Source: a virus
DNA: 13,294 bases
UHGV virus genome: UHGV-0121640
Strand: one strand, 5' to 3'
Shown here: positions 2,128-12,058 of the stretch, piece by piece
Layout of the letters: each line of letters begins with the position of its first letter
Numbering within the stretch: position 1 is the stretch's first letter
The notes under the pieces: generated by a model
Databases searched by the model: none
The model's input: the letters and a program-made list of their open reading frames with translations, nothing else
Told to the model about the DNA's origin: nothing
Made by a program: the position numbers and the translations under genes

Positions 2128-2982
2128 ATGTTACTTAACTGGCAGGGACGCCATTTCATGGAAATAAATCACTCACGAATAACATCGTACGAGATTGCGG
2201 ATTACATGATCCGCACTAAATCTCTTCTATCAGCGAAAGAACTCGCAGCAATTCTTGAAAAGGAATACCCGCATCTGGATGTCGATAAGCGCGATGTTTA
2301 TCTGCGCTTAAAGGCTATCGCTGTGTCTAAGTATTCGTCTGTTTTGATTGATGACAGTACGTGTATTCGCCTGGTGCAGGAAATGCGCGATCAGCAAAAA
2401 GACGATGATGAAGGTACTCCGCCTGAATACCGTATCGCGAGCATGCTAAACAGCTGTTCCGCGCAGATAAGCAGCCTGATCAACACCATTTACAGCATCC
2501 GGAATAACTATCGAAAAGAAAGCCGGGAGGCGGAAAAGCACGCTTTGTCTATGGGGCAAGCTGGCATTGTTAAGCTGGCATACGAACGAAAGCGTGAAAA
2601 TAACTGGTCAGTGCTGGAAGCAGCTGAATTCATCGAGGCGCATGGTGGGAAAGTTCCGCCCCTGATGCTGGAGCAAATCAAAGCCGATCTGCGTGCTCCT
2701 AAGACCAATACCGATGACGAGGAAAACCAAACAGCATCTGGCGCTCCATCCCTTGAAGATCTGGATAAAATCGCACGAGAACGGGCCGCCAGCCGCCGCG
2801 CTGATGCCGCATTGTGGATTGAGCATCGTAGAGAAGAAATTGCCGGTATCGTCGATACAGGTGGTTATGGTGATGTCGATGCGGAAGGCATATCAAACGA
2901 AGCATGGCTTGAACAGGAGCTGGACGAAGACGAGGAGGAAGACGAAGAAGTTACCCGCAAACTGTACGGGGATGATGATTAA
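2128..2982 (+). CDS. Hypothetical 284-aa protein with strongly acidic C-terminal tail (DEDEEEDEE); operator-controlled; possibly a late-gene activator (Lpa-like) or terminase small-subunit-like protein
   Basis: Long ORF with coding-like composition; no Walker A; no P1 pac-type TGATCA hexamer cluster inside. Function not assignable from sequence. Confidence 0.6.
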
Positions 2983-3934
2983 TGGCCAGAAGTTGCGTAA
3001 CCGCATCTTATTACTGTCACAGCCTACACGCCCAAGCGGCTATTTCTACGATACACACCATAAACTGGCCAAGCGTCCTGGTAACCCAGATGGCGTTTAT
3101 ACGGCGATCACGCTTAACAGTGAGGAATCACCGCTGGTAACGCCAGAATTTATCAAAATGAAGCTGGCGGAGTACGGCGGGCGTGATAACCCTATGTACA
3201 TGATTAAGGTACGCGGCCTATTCCCTAAATCACAGGACGGATTCCTTCTTGGACGTGATGAGGTTGAACGTGCGACGCGGCGGAAAGTCAAGATTGCCAA
3301 AGGATGGGGCTGGCTTGCATGTGTGGACGTTGCTGGTGGTACAGGACGGGATAAGTCCGTTATCAATATCATGATGGTGTCCGGCCAGCGAAATAAACGC
3401 CGTGTAATCAACTATCGAATGCTGGAATACACAGACGTTACAGAAACGCAGCTTGCCGCCAAAATTTTCGCAGAATGTAATCCTGAGCGATTCCCCAATA
3501 TCACCATAGCGATAGACGGCGATGGCCTGGGTAAAGCAACGGCGGATCTGATGTACGAGTATTATGGTATTACCGTACAGCGCATACGCTGGGGTAAAAA
3601 GATGCATAGCCGTGAAGATAAGAGCCTGTACTTTGATAAGCGTGCTTATGCCAATGTTCAAGCCGCAGAGGCCGTAAAATCTGGTCGTATGAGACTGGAT
3701 AAGGGTAATGAAACTATTGAGGAAGCGTCGAAAATCCCTGTAGGGATTAACTCCGCAGGTCAATGGCGGGTGATGACTAAGGAAGACATGAAGAAAAAGC
3801 TCAACCTGCACTCACCAGACCATTGGGATACATATTGTTTCGCTATGCTGGCGGATTATGTTCCCCAGGATGAGGTGCTAAGCGTCGAAGACGAAGCGCA
3901 GGTTGATGAAGCTCTGGCATGGCTTAATGAATAA
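2972..3934 (+). CDS. Terminase large subunit-like protein, C-terminal RNase H-fold nuclease half only (about 320 aa); no Walker A/B ATPase motifs; start uncertain (ATG 2972 or 2975)
   Basis: Motifs LLLSQP (ATPase motif III-like), [41 protein letters not shown] resemble acidic catalytic motifs of terminase nuclease domains. The upstream 2693-2971 extension in the track looks non-coding (overlaps 2128 ORF in another frame). Confidence 0.5.
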
Positions 3935-3937
3935 ATA

Positions 3938-3954
3938 CTTGCTCTAATAAATTG
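3938..3954 (+). promoter_or_regulatory. C1 operator-like site CTTGCTCTAATAAATTG (15/17), overlapping a possible promoter (-35 TTGTGA 3952-3957, -10 TACATT 3975-3980)
   Basis: Direct sequence match; position analogous to the operator controlling the immI promoter in P1 (recalled). Confidence 0.5.
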
Positions 3955-4085
3955 TGATTTTTGACTGCCGATGTTACATTGAACCTGACATCTTGCGCCT
4001 TGAGGCATTTTCGGTTTATGCTTATCAGGCACCTCATTAAAACGGGTGCCGGGATTGAGACCCCGGATAATGCAAAAGGCGACAC

Positions 4086-4109
4086 AGACGCCAAAAGCGT
4101 CTTTTTTTT
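4086..4109 (+). terminator. Rho-independent terminator: stem AGACGC / GCGTCT, loop CAAAA, followed by T8
   Basis: Hairpin plus U-run read directly at 4086-4109. Confidence 0.6.
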
Positions 4110-4159
4110 GTGTCATGCCATCGCACAGCCATACGTAGCGTTTAGCTCAGAGATCAATG

Positions 4160-4238
4160 GTAGTGCTGGCTGGGCTGCCGAAAGGCAGGCCGGTTCCCTT
4201 TTGCGCCGGTAGTCTCAACCCAGTCAGTGCTACCGCCA
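4160..4238 (+). ncRNA. Candidate c4-like antisense RNA: about 77-nt three-way-junction (tRNA-like) structure; boundaries approximate
   Basis: 13-bp closing stem 4162-4174 / 4219-4231 (3 G-U), internal hairpins CTGCC-GAAA-GGCAG (4175-4188) and 4190-4209, single-stranded GTCTCAA (4212-4218) complementary to TTGAGAC at 4055-4061 and 4241-4253; GGCAGGCC complementary with one bulge to GGCTGCC just after the downstream SD. By analogy to P1 c4 (RNase P-processed antisense RNA). Confidence 0.3.
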
Positions 4239-4294
4239 TTGAGATTGAGACCTCACGCGGTAGCTCCTTAAATTAGCAAAAGGAGGCTGCCATT

Positions 4295-4516
4295 GTGGCT
4301 ACTATCCCTACCCCTGCTCATCCTGAATTTATCTGGCGCTTTTACTCCTGCCAAAAACGTCACTATCACTTCGTTATTGCACCGACAGAAGATGAGGCAC
4401 GTTCTCAGCTTCCTGACGCCCCATGTATTTTCTCTGCCCGTTTTTCCACTGATTCACGCAATTCTCTCAGTTACTGGTGCCTCCCTGTTAACGCTTCTGC
4501 TCAGGAGGGACTATGA
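4295..4516 (+). CDS. 73-aa small protein, GTG start, translationally coupled to the antirepressor (ATGA overlap); icd-like position in an immI-type operon
   Basis: Strong SD AAAGGAGG (4279-4286) 8 nt before GTG 4295; stop TGA 4514-4516 overlaps ATG 4513. Size matches recalled P1 Icd (73 aa); sequence identity not verified. Confidence 0.5.
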   Translation: MATIPTPAHPEFIWRFYSCQKRHYHFVIAPTEDEARSQLPDAPCIFSARFSTDSRNSLSYWCLPVNASAQEGL

Positions 4517-5625
4517 GAACATCGTTAGTTACCCGTGAAGAGATGATCGAGGCAATTGAACAGCACACTGCCTGTATCAGTACCAGGGATATACCTGGCG
4601 TTATTGCCAACTACTTCATGATCACCAAACAACTTTACCGGAGAAAGGACAAACACGCGGTTCACCGCATTCTGCTAACCGATATCCGAGAATACCTGCT
4701 CGAACAGGGTCATCTGAATTACGCAACCGTCGCAGCCGAAGCACGCAAGGAGGCACACAGAATGAAAGCAACTAACGTTAAATCAGAAAAAATTTATGCA
4801 CCTTCAGTTCAGGAATCGGAACTGGTGGTTGTTCAGAATCAGCCGGATGAAATTCCCGTTCTGGAATGGCAGGGAGTACGTGTCGTGACAACCGAAACTC
4901 TTGCTAGAGGGTATGGGGTCGATGAAGCCAATATTCGCAACAATTTGTCTCGCAACCTTGACCGCTTTGAAGAAGGTAAGCATTACTTTCTTCTAACTGG
5001 TTTAAAATTAAGAGAATTTAAGAACAGAGTAACTGGAAGTTACTCTGTTGGTAAGAACGCCAGAAGCCTTACACTCTGGACAGAGCGCGGCGCTGCACGC
5101 ATGTCTAAGATCGTGGACACAAATGAAGCATGGGCATTCTTTGAAAAACTGGAAGACAGCTACTTCCGACAAAAAGAACAGCAACCGGTTGCAATCCCCC
5201 AAACATTACCAGAAGCCCTACGCCTGGCTGCCGAACTGGCTGAACAAAAGCAGCTTCTGGAACAGAAAGCCCACCAGCTAAATCAGCAGCTGGTGGCCGC
5301 CGCTCCTAAGGTCGATTTTGCCGACCGGGTATCAGTAGCTAAAGGGATCCTGATTGGGAATTTTGCAAAGGTTGTTGGACTTAAGCAAAACGCGCTGTTT
5401 GCCTGGTTACGGGAGAACGGCATCCTGATAGCGTCCGGTGGACGTAAAAATGTGCCGTTCCAGCAGTACATCAACGCGGGGTATTTCACGGTGAAAGAAG
5501 TGGTGCTGGATGATGAAAATGGCTACCAGATACGGCTGACGCCCCAATTAACGGGTAAAGGCCAGCAGTGGTTGACGCGTAAACTGCTCGATGCTGGCTT
5601 GTTAAAACCGGTGGCGGCTGAATAA
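4513..5625 (+). CDS. ant: Phage antirepressor, N-terminal ORF6N-type and C-terminal KilAC-type domains (370 aa); nested in-frame internal start at 4762 (287 aa) with its own SD, Ant1/Ant2-like
   Basis: ORF6N-like stretch LEWQGVRVVTTETLARGYGVDEANIRNNLSRNLDRFEEGKHYFLLTGLKLREF; KilAC-like stretch VSVAKGILIGNFAKVVGLKQNALFAWLRENGIL...QQYINAGYF; SD AAGGAGG (4747-4753) before ATG 4762. Sizes fit recalled P1 Ant1/Ant2 (42/32 kDa). Confidence 0.75.
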   Translation: MRTSLVTREEMIEAIEQHTACISTRDIPGVIANYFMITKQLYRRKDKHAVHRILLTDIREYLLEQGHLNYATVAAEARKEAHRMKATNVKSEKIYAPSVQESELVVVQNQPDEIPVLEWQGVRVVTTETLARGYGVDEANIRNNLSRNLDRFEEGKHYFLLTGLKLREFKNRVTGSYSVGKNARSLTLWTERGAARMSKIVDTNEAWAFFEKLEDSYFRQKEQQPVAIPQTLPEALRLAAELAEQKQLLEQKAHQLNQQLVAAAPKVDFADRVSVAKGILIGNFAKVVGLKQNALFAWLRENGILIASGGRKNVPFQQYINAGYFTVKEVVLDDENGYQIRLTPQLTGKGQQWLTRKLLDAGLLKPVAAE

Positions 5626-5657: not shown

Positions 5658-6509
5658 TTATTGCGCGCTTTCGGGGTTGTCGTTTACTGGCTGCCCCTTC
5701 TTGGTTTTACGGCTGCGCGTAACTGATGCGGCTGACTTAACCTTTTTCTCTTCGCGAGTGATGGCAATTTGTTTTTTTACATTTTCAATATCTGCCAGGC
5801 GATATATTTTTGCTTGCGGCCAGCGGTCGCAGATGATCGGTTCTATGGAGTCATAAAGGCTAAATTTTGCTTTTTCGAATTCACCGTTGATGATAATTCC
5901 ATCACGGAGAGTTTCATCGCAGATAAACACGCCACACAGTGGCACATGGTAACTCACTGATTTACCATCATTGTAGTTAGGGCTACTGGAAATGTAGTGG
6001 ACGCGCAGCATTGTTTCGCTAAAGCCGTGTACGCGCATACGGAATTTTTCATCCTCCGGGTACTGCTTCATTAGCTCTTTTGTTGCTTCCAGGTTCTCTA
6101 TGTATTTCGCACTGTGCTCATTGATCCCCGCGCTTTTCTGGATGCGAATGTCCTTATCAATCAGATGAATAATGCGGCCAGCGGTCATGTTGACGCTGTT
6201 CACAGCTTCTGTCTGATAAGTCGTAACCTTACGCACACCGCGAAGGATGTTAGGCACTGGATATAAAATAGTCTTTGGGATATTGAGGTCTGGGTACTGT
6301 TCCAGTTCCCGCGCCATTAAAGTCCATTTATCAATTTCAGCCTGAATGCTGTCAGTTTCTTTGAACGGTAGAACGACAACCGGGCGTACAGGACGACCGT
6401 CGCTGGCTGTATCAACGTGTTGGGCGCGTGCAACAGCTTTTTTTAGAAAGAGATCCCTGAAGCTGACGAACTCCTGGTACAGTTGTTCGCCGTAGACATA
6501 ATTTATCAT
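5658..6509 (-). CDS. c1: C1 repressor of lysis (primary immunity repressor, immC), 283 aa
   Basis: Translation MINYVYGEQLYQEFVSFRDLFLKKAVARAQHVD...NDNPESAQ matches P1 C1 as recalled; strong SD (GGAGGAGG on minus strand) 5 nt before ATG. Confidence 0.93.
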   Translation of the reverse strand: MINYVYGEQLYQEFVSFRDLFLKKAVARAQHVDTASDGRPVRPVVVLPFKETDSIQAEIDKWTLMARELEQYPDLNIPKTILYPVPNILRGVRKVTTYQTEAVNSVNMTAGRIIHLIDKDIRIQKSAGINEHSAKYIENLEATKELMKQYPEDEKFRMRVHGFSETMLRVHYISSSPNYNDGKSVSYHVPLCGVFICDETLRDGIIINGEFEKAKFSLYDSIEPIICDRWPQAKIYRLADIENVKKQIAITREEKKVKSAASVTRSRKTKKGQPVNDNPESAQ

Positions 6510-6602: not shown

Positions 6603-6619
6603 TAGATTTATTAGTGCAT
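6603..6619 (-). promoter_or_regulatory. Degenerate C1 operator-like site between coi and c1 (minus strand ATGCACTAATAAATCTA; 9-bp core CTAATAAAT intact)
   Basis: Partial match to operator consensus with one-base deletion in the left half. Confidence 0.25.
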
Positions 6620-6829
6620 TTATTGTGAGTCTAACTGGTTAGTTGCCATGAGATATTCGATTGTGTCAGTGAGGTCATCCAGGTCGTCTTGGGTGATGCG
6701 GTACTCCTGATTGGATATCTTTGAGTAGTGTTCAGCAATGGCGCGGGCAGCGTCGGTTTCGGCAGGGTCTACAGATAAAGCGTTAGAGCAATGTCTAACG
6801 TCGTCGATGGTTGGTTGAATGAAAGCCAT
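6620..6829 (-). CDS. coi: Coi, C1 inactivator, 69 aa
   Basis: 69-aa acidic ORF immediately upstream of c1 on the same strand, as in P1 immC; size matches recalled Coi. Confidence 0.8.
   Translation of the reverse strand: MAFIQPTIDDVRHCSNALSVDPAETDAARAIAEHYSKISNQEYRITQDDLDDLTDTIEYLMATNQLDSQ
6776..6792 (-). promoter_or_regulatory. C1 operator-like half-match inside coi coding sequence (minus strand ATTGCTCTAACGCTTTA; first 10 bp perfect)
   Basis: Direct sequence match of left half only. Confidence 0.25.
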
Positions 6830-7067: not shown

Positions 7068-7084
7068 TAATTTATTAGAGCAAT
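7068..7084 (-). promoter_or_regulatory. C1 operator (minus strand ATTGCTCTAATAAATTA; 16/17)
   Basis: Near-perfect consensus match; divergent with the 7151 copy, flanking about 65 bp; consistent with the Op99 cluster of P1. Confidence 0.6.
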
Positions 7085-7150: not shown

Positions 7151-7167
7151 ATTGCTCTAATAATTCT
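7151..7167 (+). promoter_or_regulatory. C1 operator (ATTGCTCTAATAATTCT; 15/17)
   Basis: Direct consensus match. Confidence 0.55.
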
Positions 7168-8712: not shown

Positions 8713-8729
8713 ATTGCTCTAATTATTTG
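8713..8729 (+). promoter_or_regulatory. C1 operator-like site ATTGCTCTAATTATTTG (14/17) directly downstream of cre
   Basis: Direct consensus match. Confidence 0.45.
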
Positions 8730-9188: not shown

Positions 9189-9218
9189 ATTGCTCTAATT
9201 GATTGCTATAATTAAGCC
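9189..9218 (+). promoter_or_regulatory. Tandem overlapping C1 operator-like sites ATTGCTCTAATTGATTG (14/17) and ATTGCTATAATTAAGCC (12/17) upstream of ref
   Basis: Direct match; ref is a C1-repressed gene in P1 (recalled). Confidence 0.55.
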
Positions 9219-10753: not shown

Positions 10754-12058
10754 ATGAGCGAGTATATAGAAATTGCCTATGCAGCAGCTACACATAGGCT
10801 GTGCTTTCTTACAGGCACTGGATTTTCAAAGGCTGTTTCTGATGATAAAGCCCCAAGTTGGCAATCTTTATTGGAGCAACTGTGCGGTTTATTGAAGGAT
10901 GGTGACTCACTCAAAGAGGAATTATTTCCTGATGGAAAAGCAAAAGACCTTAGCCTTGAAGAGGCTGCTCAGGTTATTGCACTAAAATTTATACTTTCGG
11001 GGAAAAATATTTACCAGGAGATTGAGAAAATCATAGCCTCAATCGAACTTGATCCATCAATTGAATATATTCAAGACTTTTTCAAAGAAAACACATTTAA
11101 AGTAATTACGACAAATTATGACAAGTTAGCAGAAAAACTGGCTGGAGAGAATCGAACGTGTACAATCACCCCCGGCCTGCCAATTCCAAAATATAATTGT
11201 GAGGTTAAAGTCTACCATGTTCACGGCTCTATAGACTCCCCATCAGATATGGTTGTTACTAGCGAGGATTATTTCAGATTTATAAATGGTAATTCTTACT
11301 TTTCAAATAAACTAAGCACAGTTCTACATGAAAACACTATTGTTATTCTTGGCTATTCTCTAAGTGACGCGAACCTCAAGGCGATTATAAATGAATATAA
11401 GGTATTTTCACGGGACAACGTAATGTCCTCCAATATTTTCCTTATTTCCCGAGGGAAACTATTGCAACCTATTAAAGATTACTATTTTTCCTGCTTTGGG
11501 ATTAGGGTTATAGATAAAACAGAGGTGTCTGATTTCTTTAGAAAACTTAACAAGAAAATTCCAGAAGCAAAAAAAATAAAAGACAAATTGAGGCACTCAA
11601 TCAAATCGGTAATAAAAAACGGAAGAGAGTATAAAATAGAGTTCTTGAAGTTAGAGGATTCTTTTTATCATATCATTTCCTCCATTTCATCATCTGGATA
11701 TAGCTGGAATGATGAAAAGGTATTAAATGTTTTTTGTGATATAATAGATAAAAAAATAGATCTTACTAAAGAGTCTGGCGCATGGGAGCAGTATGAACAC
11801 CTGGCAAAATGGCTTATTTATTTCGGTAGTTTATTTGAAGTAAAAGGAACCAACTTTGAGAAAAAATACATACATGCGGTTGAACACTCAATGACTTATA
11901 TGAATAAACCTTACGAAACAGGCTACTCATGGCGAGCATATCTAGCCTGGAAAACAAAATGGCCTTCACTGACAGCATCTAACCGCTCTCTTATTAAGAG
12001 TAAGATGGAAGAAATCCCGCTACAACAGATTCACGATATTATATCTAAGTTTATATAG
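10754..12058 (+). CDS. SIR2-family (sirtuin-like, DHS-like NAD-binding fold) protein, 434 aa: N-terminal predicted NADase domain + unassigned C-terminal domain of about 180 aa; candidate defense effector
   Basis: Motif series FLTGTGFS, TTNYDKLAEK, YHVHGS, VILGYSLSDANL in the order and spacing seen in ThsA/DSR-type SIR2 domains; SD GGAG 7 nt before ATG; gene visibly AT-rich versus flanks. Confidence 0.8.
   Translation: MSEYIEIAYAAATHRLCFLTGTGFSKAVSDDKAPSWQSLLEQLCGLLKDGDSLKEELFPDGKAKDLSLEEAAQVIALKFILSGKNIYQEIEKIIASIELDPSIEYIQDFFKENTFKVITTNYDKLAEKLAGENRTCTITPGLPIPKYNCEVKVYHVHGSIDSPSDMVVTSEDYFRFINGNSYFSNKLSTVLHENTIVILGYSLSDANLKAIINEYKVFSRDNVMSSNIFLISRGKLLQPIKDYYFSCFGIRVIDKTEVSDFFRKLNKKIPEAKKIKDKLRHSIKSVIKNGREYKIEFLKLEDSFYHIISSISSSGYSWNDEKVLNVFCDIIDKKIDLTKESGAWEQYEHLAKWLIYFGSLFEVKGTNFEKKYIHAVEHSMTYMNKPYETGYSWRAYLAWKTKWPSLTASNRSLIKSKMEEIPLQQIHDIISKFI

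Follow-up and report, generated by a model that had tools for sequence, protein, structure and literature searches.

The window analyzed here is the whole of a 13,294-nt stretch of the virus genome UHGV-0121640. It is part of a P1-like plasmid prophage and carries, in order, phd-doc, pdcB, lpa, pacA, pacB, the c4 module that is our subject, c1 (on the minus strand), coi, cre, ref and mat. The module comprises an operator-like site, promoters, a first pair of target sites (a1/b1), the gene for a c4 RNA, a second pair of target sites (a2/b2), icd and ant, the same order of elements as in the immI region of P1 (Table 1). A reading of the window made from its letters alone (the sequence-only reading) had proposed that a tRNA-like RNA at this site acts as an antisense RNA of the c4 type. 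Since 1990 the c4 RNA family and the way it works have belonged to textbook knowledge on phages, and the finding itself is for that reason unsurprising; in that year Citron and Schuster are said to have described the c4 antisense RNA encoded in immI of P1 and P7. The kind is well known, and the c4 of the window is a previously undescribed, mis-annotated member of it, with recognition sequences of its own, in a second immI-type module.

Family membership and fold of the c4 RNA

We scanned the whole window with all Rfam families and obtained two matches above the curated thresholds, C4 and isrK. The C4 antisense RNA model (RF01695) matched positions 4153-4240 over its full length (model positions 1-87) with 75 bits against a threshold of 45 (E = 1.7e-13), and this covariance-model search, a check that had been set beforehand, bore out the c4-family interpretation. 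At permissive thresholds the sole extra match in the window was a weak one to c4-a1b1 (RF03163) at 4016-4069, with 22 bits against a threshold of 46.7. Within the known family of c4 antisense RNAs, the region 4153-4240 is a typical case.

The RNA folds into three helices. The closing stem has 17 bp (4158-4174 with 4219-4235), hairpin 1 is a GNRA hairpin (CTGCC-GAAA-GGCAG, 4175-4188) present as the sequence-only reading had described it, and hairpin 2 consists of a GCCGG/CCGGU stem with a 12-nt loop. The 13-bp stem with three G-U pairs that had been taken for the whole closing stem (4162-4174/4219-4231) does exist, as the inner part of these 17 bp. The stability that had been predicted was confirmed, with a minimum free energy (MFE) of -46.4 kcal/mol (z = -5.6) that was equaled by 0 of 200 shuffles. 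We aligned the c4 of the window with those of a second P1-like type, P1, another immI type, Gifsy-1, an Stx2 phage, APSE-1, P4, a Klebsiella phage and phiP27, 10 members in total, the distant c4 lineages being drawn from a phage collection. All 268 of the 268 pair cells held standard pairs, and 14 of the 27 pairs were compensatory, that is, changed on both sides. When the partners were slid by 1-3 columns as a control, pairing fell to 31-49%. RNAalifold independently recovered the same three-helix structure from this alignment.

P1/P7 c4 belongs to the same Rfam family and shares the three-helix fold, with a' in the junction and b' in the loop of hairpin 2. We took the coordinates of P1 c4 from the P1 GenBank record and aligned the window to them. 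An RNase P-made 5' end and a mature form of about 77 nt would be expected here, given the homology in position with the annotated 77-nt P1 RNA and the 3' GCCA tail. Hartmann et al. reportedly described P1 c4 as an RNase P substrate in 1995, and by homology the same would hold for the c4 of the window. Together with the long, acceptor-like closing helix and the GCCA tail, this might suggest that the region is a tRNA, a tRNA-derived gene or some other tRNA-like element. We give that explanation next to no chance, as ARAGORN reports neither a tRNA nor a tmRNA for the window, the Rfam scan of the window gave no tRNA match, and the three helices do not make a cloverleaf. The likeness to a tRNA goes no further than the acceptor-stem-like helix and the GCCA end; the D-loop-like AGCTCAG of the sequence-only reading lies at 4144-4150 rather than 4143-4149, outside the RNA, and is not conserved (AGCTACG and AGCTCCG in close relatives). 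Another known RNA, the sar RNA of P22, resembles the c4 of the window in that it, too, is small and antisense and prevents the translation of a phage antirepressor. It is a true cis-antisense transcript, made from the opposite strand, lacks the c4 fold and is not processed by RNase P; the all-family Rfam scan of the window gave no sar-type match.

Recognition elements and their target sites

The fold leaves two stretches of c4 accessible, a' (GUCUCAA) in the junction and b' (CCUUUUGC) in the loop of hairpin 2, at the same structural positions as a' (CUGUCAA) and b' (UCACUAAC) of P1. The sequences themselves differ from P1 at both elements, and the P7 types have yet another b', UCACAAUC. Exact complements of 7 nt and 8 nt stand on both flanks of c4 in antiparallel order; for comparison, when c4 was shuffled, a 7-mer with complements on both flanks turned up in 1.4% of the sequences. 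The P1 record lists a1, b1, the 77-nt c4, a2, b2, icd and ant1, with the order and site lengths (7 and 8 nt) found in the window, and in both b2 lies over the Shine-Dalgarno (SD) sequence of icd, with overlapping icd and ant downstream. The spacing from b2 to the icd start is 12 nt in the window and 11 nt in P1, and that from a1 to b1 is 17 nt versus 14 nt.

To follow these elements we used 80 IMG/VR loci retrieved via the Icd-like protein, plus P1 and the phage JL22; the retrieval gave only proteins of 95-99% identity, and the set thus holds few lineages with many a'/b' variants. Across it we counted 13 distinct combinations of junction and hairpin-2 loop sequences. In all 13 variants a1, a2, b1 and b2 were complementary to c4 (perfectly or with one G-U), lay at fixed offsets and changed together with c4. 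Within the module type of the window, a' is GUCUCAA, GUUCCAA or AGGCCAA and b' is CCUUUUGC, CCUUUGAC or CCUUGGAC, in five combinations. Such covariation at three sites is strong evidence that c4 pairs with the copies on either side of it, upstream as well as downstream.

Of the two downstream pairings that had been proposed for c4, one held. The junction GTCTCAA is indeed unpaired and complementary to TTGAGAC at 4245-4251. The tandem ATTGAGATTGAGAC to which it had been assigned exists, at 4238-4251 rather than 4241-4253, and only its second copy is a target; the first TTGAGA (4239-4244) stays constant in variants with a' GUUCCAA, and only 4245-4251 tracks a'. The second pairing, of GGCAGGCC (4184-4191) with the GGCTGCC that follows the SD, failed. 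Its nucleotides are buried in two helices (unpaired probability 0.01). It has no perfect complement of more than 5 nt in the post-SD stretch, a length that about 35% of shuffles reach as well, and hairpin 1 varies (CUGCC, CUACC, CCGAC, CAGCC, GAGCC) against an invariant GGCUGCC and GGAGGCUGCCAU, without covariation. Its place is taken by the pairing of the hairpin-2 loop with the SD-overlapping b2, which the sequence-only reading had missed along with the upstream copies a1 (4055-4061) and b1 (4072-4079).

In the predicted fold of the processed 5' untranslated region (UTR), GGCUGCC has a partner in cis, GGUAGC (4259-4264), and the hairpin that they form sequesters the SD. The pairing extends over GGUAGCUCCUU (4259-4269) with AAGGA-G-GCUGCC (4280-4291); it would hide the SD of icd in cis and leave most of b2 in a loop. 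The SD plus start (GGAGGCUGCCAUnAUGGCUAC) is almost invariant among the window, a close variant (L006), the Stx2 phage, P4 and phiP27.

A further hairpin of 8 bp, GCTACCGC (4229-4236) with GCGGTAGC (4257-4264), had also been proposed and was confirmed. It forms in the predicted fold of 4219-4310, is mutually exclusive with the closing stem of c4, and is kept with compensatory changes in 8 of 10 lineages (the window, L006, L086, L087, L088, L089, L090 and L091). It may serve in processing, in the presentation of a2 or as a switch.

Table 1. Features of the c4 module and of the adjoining genes, in order of position in the window.
Feature	Position	Strand	Remarks
C1-repressor operator-like site CTTGCTCTAATAAATTG	3938..3954	+	Positional counterpart of P1 Oc4 (Op51)
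P51a-like promoter (predicted)	3952..3980	+	-35 TTGTGA 3952-3957, 17-nt spacer, -10 TACATT 3975-3980; overlaps operator-like site
P51b-like promoter (predicted)	3993..4022	+	-35 TTGCGC 3993-3998, 18-nt spacer, -10 TATGCT 4017-4022; predicted start near 4029
Leader / IsrK-type small RNA	4029..4107	+	Carries a1 and b1; ends in intrinsic terminator
a1 UUGAGAC	4055-4061	+	Upstream, loop of leader hairpin 2; exact complement of 4212-4218
b1 GCAAAAGG	4072-4079	+	Upstream, single-stranded; exact complement of 4197-4204
c4 antisense RNA gene	4153..4240	+	Rfam RF01695 match, fold, covariation
Predicted mature c4	4159-4237	+	79 nt; ends inferred by alignment to 77-nt P1 c4
b' CCUUUUGC	4197-4204	+	Loop of c4 hairpin 2; unpaired probability 0.87
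a' GUCUCAA	4212-4218	+	Single-stranded c4 junction; unpaired probability 0.99
Alternative hairpin	4229..4264	+	c4 3' arm GCUACCGC (4229-4236) with GCGGUAGC (4257-4264); a2 in loop
a2 UUGAGAC	4245-4251	+	Downstream of c4; complement of a'
b2 GCAAAAGG	4276-4283	+	Downstream, over icd SD; complement of b'
SD AAAGGAGG of icd-like ORF	4279-4286	+	Overlapped by b2, 5 nt
icd-like ORF	4295..4516	+	73 aa, GTG start; stop overlaps ant start (ATGA 4513-4516)
Antirepressor Ant	4513..5625	+	370 aa; ORF6N + KilAC (Pfam PF10543, PF03374)
c1 repressor gene	5658..6509	-	283 aa; relatives annotate 'phage repressor protein C1' at same position

Proposed control of icd and ant, and competing explanations

The P1-type icd/ant context assumed by the sequence-only reading is present, from the operator-like site and the a1/b1 leader through c4 and a2/b2 to an Icd-like open reading frame (ORF) and an overlapping antirepressor start. 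In RefSeq relatives the counterpart of 4295-4516 is annotated 'host cell division inhibitor Icd-like protein', and its length is that of P1 icd. Canonical-type loci (L069-L085) align to residues 8-73 of the Icd of the window with 95-98% identity. The start codon is GTG in the window and JL22, and ATG in four close variants of the window type (L006, L031, L032 and L037). Ant is 57% identical to P1 Ant1; the N and C termini are conserved and the middle is replaced, in the window by an ORF6N domain, a difference from P1. C1 is presumed to be the target of Ant and the regulator of the operator-like site.

That site (3938-3954) differs by 2 mismatches from ATTGCTCTAATAAATTT, which we take to be the C1 operator consensus. 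It is collinear with the P1 operator/P51a region, where Oc4 reads AATGCTCTAATAAATTT, and is conserved in the L006 and L031 types; in P1 a C1 operator stands upstream of a dual promoter, and the site in the window is a candidate C1 operator. Further 17-mers resembling the C1 operator (1-3 mismatches) occur at 2041-2057, 6604-6620 (-), 7068-7084 (-), 7151-7167, 8713-8729 and 9189-9205, where they precede lpa, c8 and ref or lie around coi/c1, which is what a P1 backbone would lead one to expect. Both promoters are predictions read by hand. The P51a-like promoter is collinear with the annotated P2c4 of P1 and scores 8/12, under the threshold of our consensus scan; the geometry of the P51b-like promoter (-35, 18 nt, -10, 6 nt, position 1 of the isrK model) is common to Gifsy-1, the Stx2 phage (F039), APSE-1, P4, phiP27 and P1. 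The one promoter that the scan did list, at 4245-4274, lies inside the a2 region and was not considered meaningful.

The leader matched the Rfam model of isrK (RF01394), a short Hfq-binding RNA of about 77 nt, at 4029-4107 with 59 bits against a threshold of 50, and it ends just after b1 in an intrinsic terminator (stem 4086-4102, then T8). Unlike that of P1, it scores as isrK rather than as c4-a1b1; the two models overlap in Gifsy-1 and APSE-1. The tandem of isrK and C4 recurs in P4 (seqA and CI RNA), APSE-1, the Klebsiella phage, phiP27, the Stx2 phage and Gifsy-1. The two are already annotated next to each other in some GenBank records, and a paper on APSE mentions them side by side (PMC7313666).

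On the model of P1 and Gifsy-1, the module might work as follows. Transcription would begin near 4029, from one promoter that overlaps the C1-operator-like site and another that lies downstream of it. The leader would show a1 in a hairpin loop and b1 single-stranded, and because it ends in an intrinsic terminator, some transcripts should stop there as a small RNA of the IsrK type. Transcripts that read through would include c4; RNase P would cut them at G4159, as homology with P1 suggests, and the 3' end would fall near C4237, in a tRNA-like GCCA tail. In mature c4 of about 79 nt, a' would pair with a2 and b' with b2, the latter duplex covering the SD of the icd-like ORF, so that neither Icd nor the translationally coupled Ant would be made. 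C1 repression would be kept because Icd and the coupled Ant stay untranslated. The gene context fits a c4 that would repress icd/ant and set immI specificity. The a1/b1 copy in the leader is most likely a competitor of a2/b2 for c4, a decoy working in cis or, as the short RNA, in trans; the experiments on Gifsy-1 IsrK imply such a role. Overall, we hold with high confidence that 4153-4240 encodes a c4-family antisense RNA repressing a second antirepressor module of the immI type.

Gifsy-1 (NC_010392, locus at 34131-34316, minus strand) bears on the leader, and a different account of the locus comes from it. Like the window, it has a terminated leader of the isrK type, a C4-family RNA (69 bits, covering orf45/STnc1160) and an antirepressor whose SD abuts b2; unlike the window, it is a lambdoid prophage without a C1 operator and has no icd between c4 and the antirepressor. 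IsrK of Gifsy-1 overlaps a c4-a1b1 match of 48 bits. Counted from the start of IsrK, a1 is nt 26-32 (UUGGCGU) and a' is nt 158-164 (ACGCCAA), a2 is at nt 192, b2 is at nt 222 and abuts the SD of anrP, and the AUG of orf45 (nt 107) stands at the 5' edge of c4. The Gifsy-1 paper (PMC4825925) treats the c4 region as an ORF plus mRNA leader and does not use the name c4. It describes the compensatory mutants G28A/C162U and G31A/C159U, which by these coordinates of a1 and a' fall exactly in the a1:a' duplex, and reports that IsrK in trans raises translation of anrP, the antirepressor gene, more than 100-fold; it also finds a processed species of about 80 nt and compares the system with P4 seqA/CI. 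Our literature search found no paper that names STnc1160/orf45 as c4 RNA or links IsrK to c4, the nearest being that P4 analogy and the side-by-side mention in PMC7313666.

In the published model for Gifsy-1 IsrK, the region is mainly a cis-acting mRNA leader with no free c4 repressor acting in trans: a1:a' folds the full transcript into an inactive form, orf45 ('ash') must be translated, and short IsrK activates in trans. The window has the same isrK and c4 tandem, its ATG at the 5' edge of c4 (4157) opens a 39-aa ORF that matches Pfam Phage_ASH above threshold, and for Gifsy-1 both the compensatory mutants in a1:a' and a tagged ORF45 protein with a start-codon effect have been reported (PMC4825925). 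The processed species STnc1160 of about 80 nt covers the c4 region of Gifsy-1, however, and the same paper notes that the nucleotides of orf45 are conserved while its amino acids vary. In the window the ORF cannot give coupling of the Gifsy-1 type, because it stops at 4276, before the SD of icd and without overlapping the icd start, and the homologous frame of P1 runs into a stop codon within b'. In the predicted MFE fold of 4029-4300, c4 retains its own fold and a1:a' does not form, and a2/b2 track c4 as strictly as the upstream copies do, for which a purely a1:a' model has no need. We regard a mainly cis-acting leader as unlikely here, while granting it a real chance.

A separate question is whether 4157-4276 is simply a protein-coding gene with an incidental RNA fold. 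RefSeq annotates this coding sequence (CDS) as 'ash family protein' in hundreds of plasmids, and the translation of 4157-4273 scores 29.1 bits with Pfam PF10554 against a threshold of 26. The Rfam C4 match is far stronger, substitutions are compensatory in the RNA helices, and the variable positions are those of a' and b', mirrored at two non-coding flanking sites. The frame is also interrupted in P1, where c4 is an experimentally defined 77-nt RNA; we found no constraint at the level of the protein, as the homologous P1 frame has a stop and its translation gives no PF10554 match. A coding gene alone is highly improbable, and the 'ash' ORF is most likely an RNA gene translated by mistake, although, given the orf45 translation data from Gifsy-1, it may have a dual RNA and coding role. 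Part of the ash family of Pfam/NCBIfam may model a translated RNA gene. In P4, the old CDS 'cI gene product (AA 1-137)' overlaps the homologous RNA.

The output of c4 could also be transcription termination. CI RNA of the satellite phage P4, which serves immunity together with seqA and seqC, causes premature transcription termination of the replication operon, and pairing of c4 with its flanking sites might do the same here rather than occlude a ribosome-binding site. P4 is within the family, with C4 (74.9 bits) and isrK (at seqA) matches, 72% identity over window 4148-4300, and one processed RNA that pairs with both sides; the leader of the window has its intrinsic terminator just after b1; and in P1, according to what Biere, Citron and Schuster reportedly found in 1992, translational repression is followed by Rho-dependent polarity. 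On the other side, 5 nt of the SD fall within b2, SD and start codon stand in the same geometry as in P1, and the downstream genes are a P1-type icd-ant pair with overlapping stop and start. We expect occlusion of the icd-ant ribosome-binding site and consider termination rather improbable.

Several observations weigh against repression of icd/ant by c4 as set out above. The P4 homologue acts through termination and not by blocking a ribosome-binding site, so that the output step could differ. The consensus promoter scan listed neither 3952-3980 nor 3993-4022, and their hexamers are weak. The host plasmid of this copy carries deletions in lpa, pacA and pacB: relative to intact relatives (L001), 874 bp from the 3' part of lpa through the 5' part of pacA and a further 528 bp within pacB are gone, with junctions at window 2358-2360 and 2998-3001, and the ORF at 2128-2982 matches the Lpa profile over its first half only (positions 1-67 of 131). 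The window copy is probably defective for late-gene activation and DNA packaging, and because of these deletions the role of the module in the choice between lysis and lysogeny may be vestigial here. Finally, the ORF over c4 (4157-4276) matches Phage_ASH and its Gifsy-1 counterpart is reported to be translated (PMC4825925), so that a dual coding role is possible.

Second antirepressor modules on P1-like plasmids

In P1, immI lies beside the sim genes, kilA and repL; the module of the window was not found at that location and sits instead between pacB and c1, and the match between P1 and the window stops at the stop codon of pacB. It is very probably a second antirepressor module of the immI type, inserted at this place in a P1-like plasmid prophage. 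For the stretch between pacB and c1, Venturini et al. 2019 (PMC6906374) described an inserted antirepressor together with two hypothetical orfs, both short, likened the arrangement to that of RCS47, and did not mention RNAs. The closest phage, JL22, is 99.6% identical over 4029-4300 and, unlike P1, carries the pacB-c1 module in addition to a canonical immI. Its canonical module adjoins kilA-repL and has a P7-type c4 with a c4-a1b1 match; its module at the pacB-c1 site has an isrK match and a c4 identical to that of the window. JL22 also has an Rfam IS009 match (193 bits) at 29625-29823, in the region of the tail-fibre assembly gene, that is unrelated to c4.

We found 6 replicons with two or three modules, and in every one the co-resident c4 genes differ in a' and/or b'. 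With n = 6, these differences fit orthogonal circuits. Among multi-module contigs, the IMG/VR contigs 2698536372_000019 (L013, L078, L084) and 651053023_000001 (L070, L080) carry three c4-icd modules, or two canonical-type ones about 2 kb apart in opposite orientation, each module with a distinct b' and/or a'.

The region is present in 664 of 5,426 complete E. coli genomes, nearly always on plasmids, and in 425 PLSDB plasmids, chiefly from Escherichia with a few from Salmonella. Farther along the window, between mat and lxc/ulx, positions 10754-12058 encode a SIR2-like protein of 434 aa (Pfam SIR2_2; PADLOC PDC-S25, ThsA and LmuA-like matches). It occupies the variable slot in which P1 has the res-mod restriction system and is probably an anti-phage defense gene.

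More tentatively, and at somewhat less than even confidence, we suggest that the module between pacB and c1 provides a second antirepressor switch that is orthogonal to the canonical immI of the same plasmid prophage, and whose IsrK-type leader serves as an anti-antisense decoy that titrates c4 via a1/b1 and so gives a separate induction input. If so, Gifsy-1 'orf45'/STnc1160 would be c4 RNA and IsrK its a1/b1 leader, and the literatures on P1, P4 and IsrK would be about a single system; new specificities of immunity would come from exchanges of short a'/b' cassettes along with both target copies.

Hundreds of P1-like resistance plasmids carry this c4 regulator without an RNA annotation, under the RefSeq label 'ash family protein'. 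Replicons with two or three c4-gated antirepressor modules bear on superinfection immunity and on the coexistence of the P1-like plasmids that spread extended-spectrum beta-lactamases (ESBL). Tying IsrK/orf45 of Gifsy-1 to the c4 a1/b1 system would give a simpler reading of a published regulatory puzzle, and the a'/b' variants offer a natural set of orthogonal antisense/target pairs.

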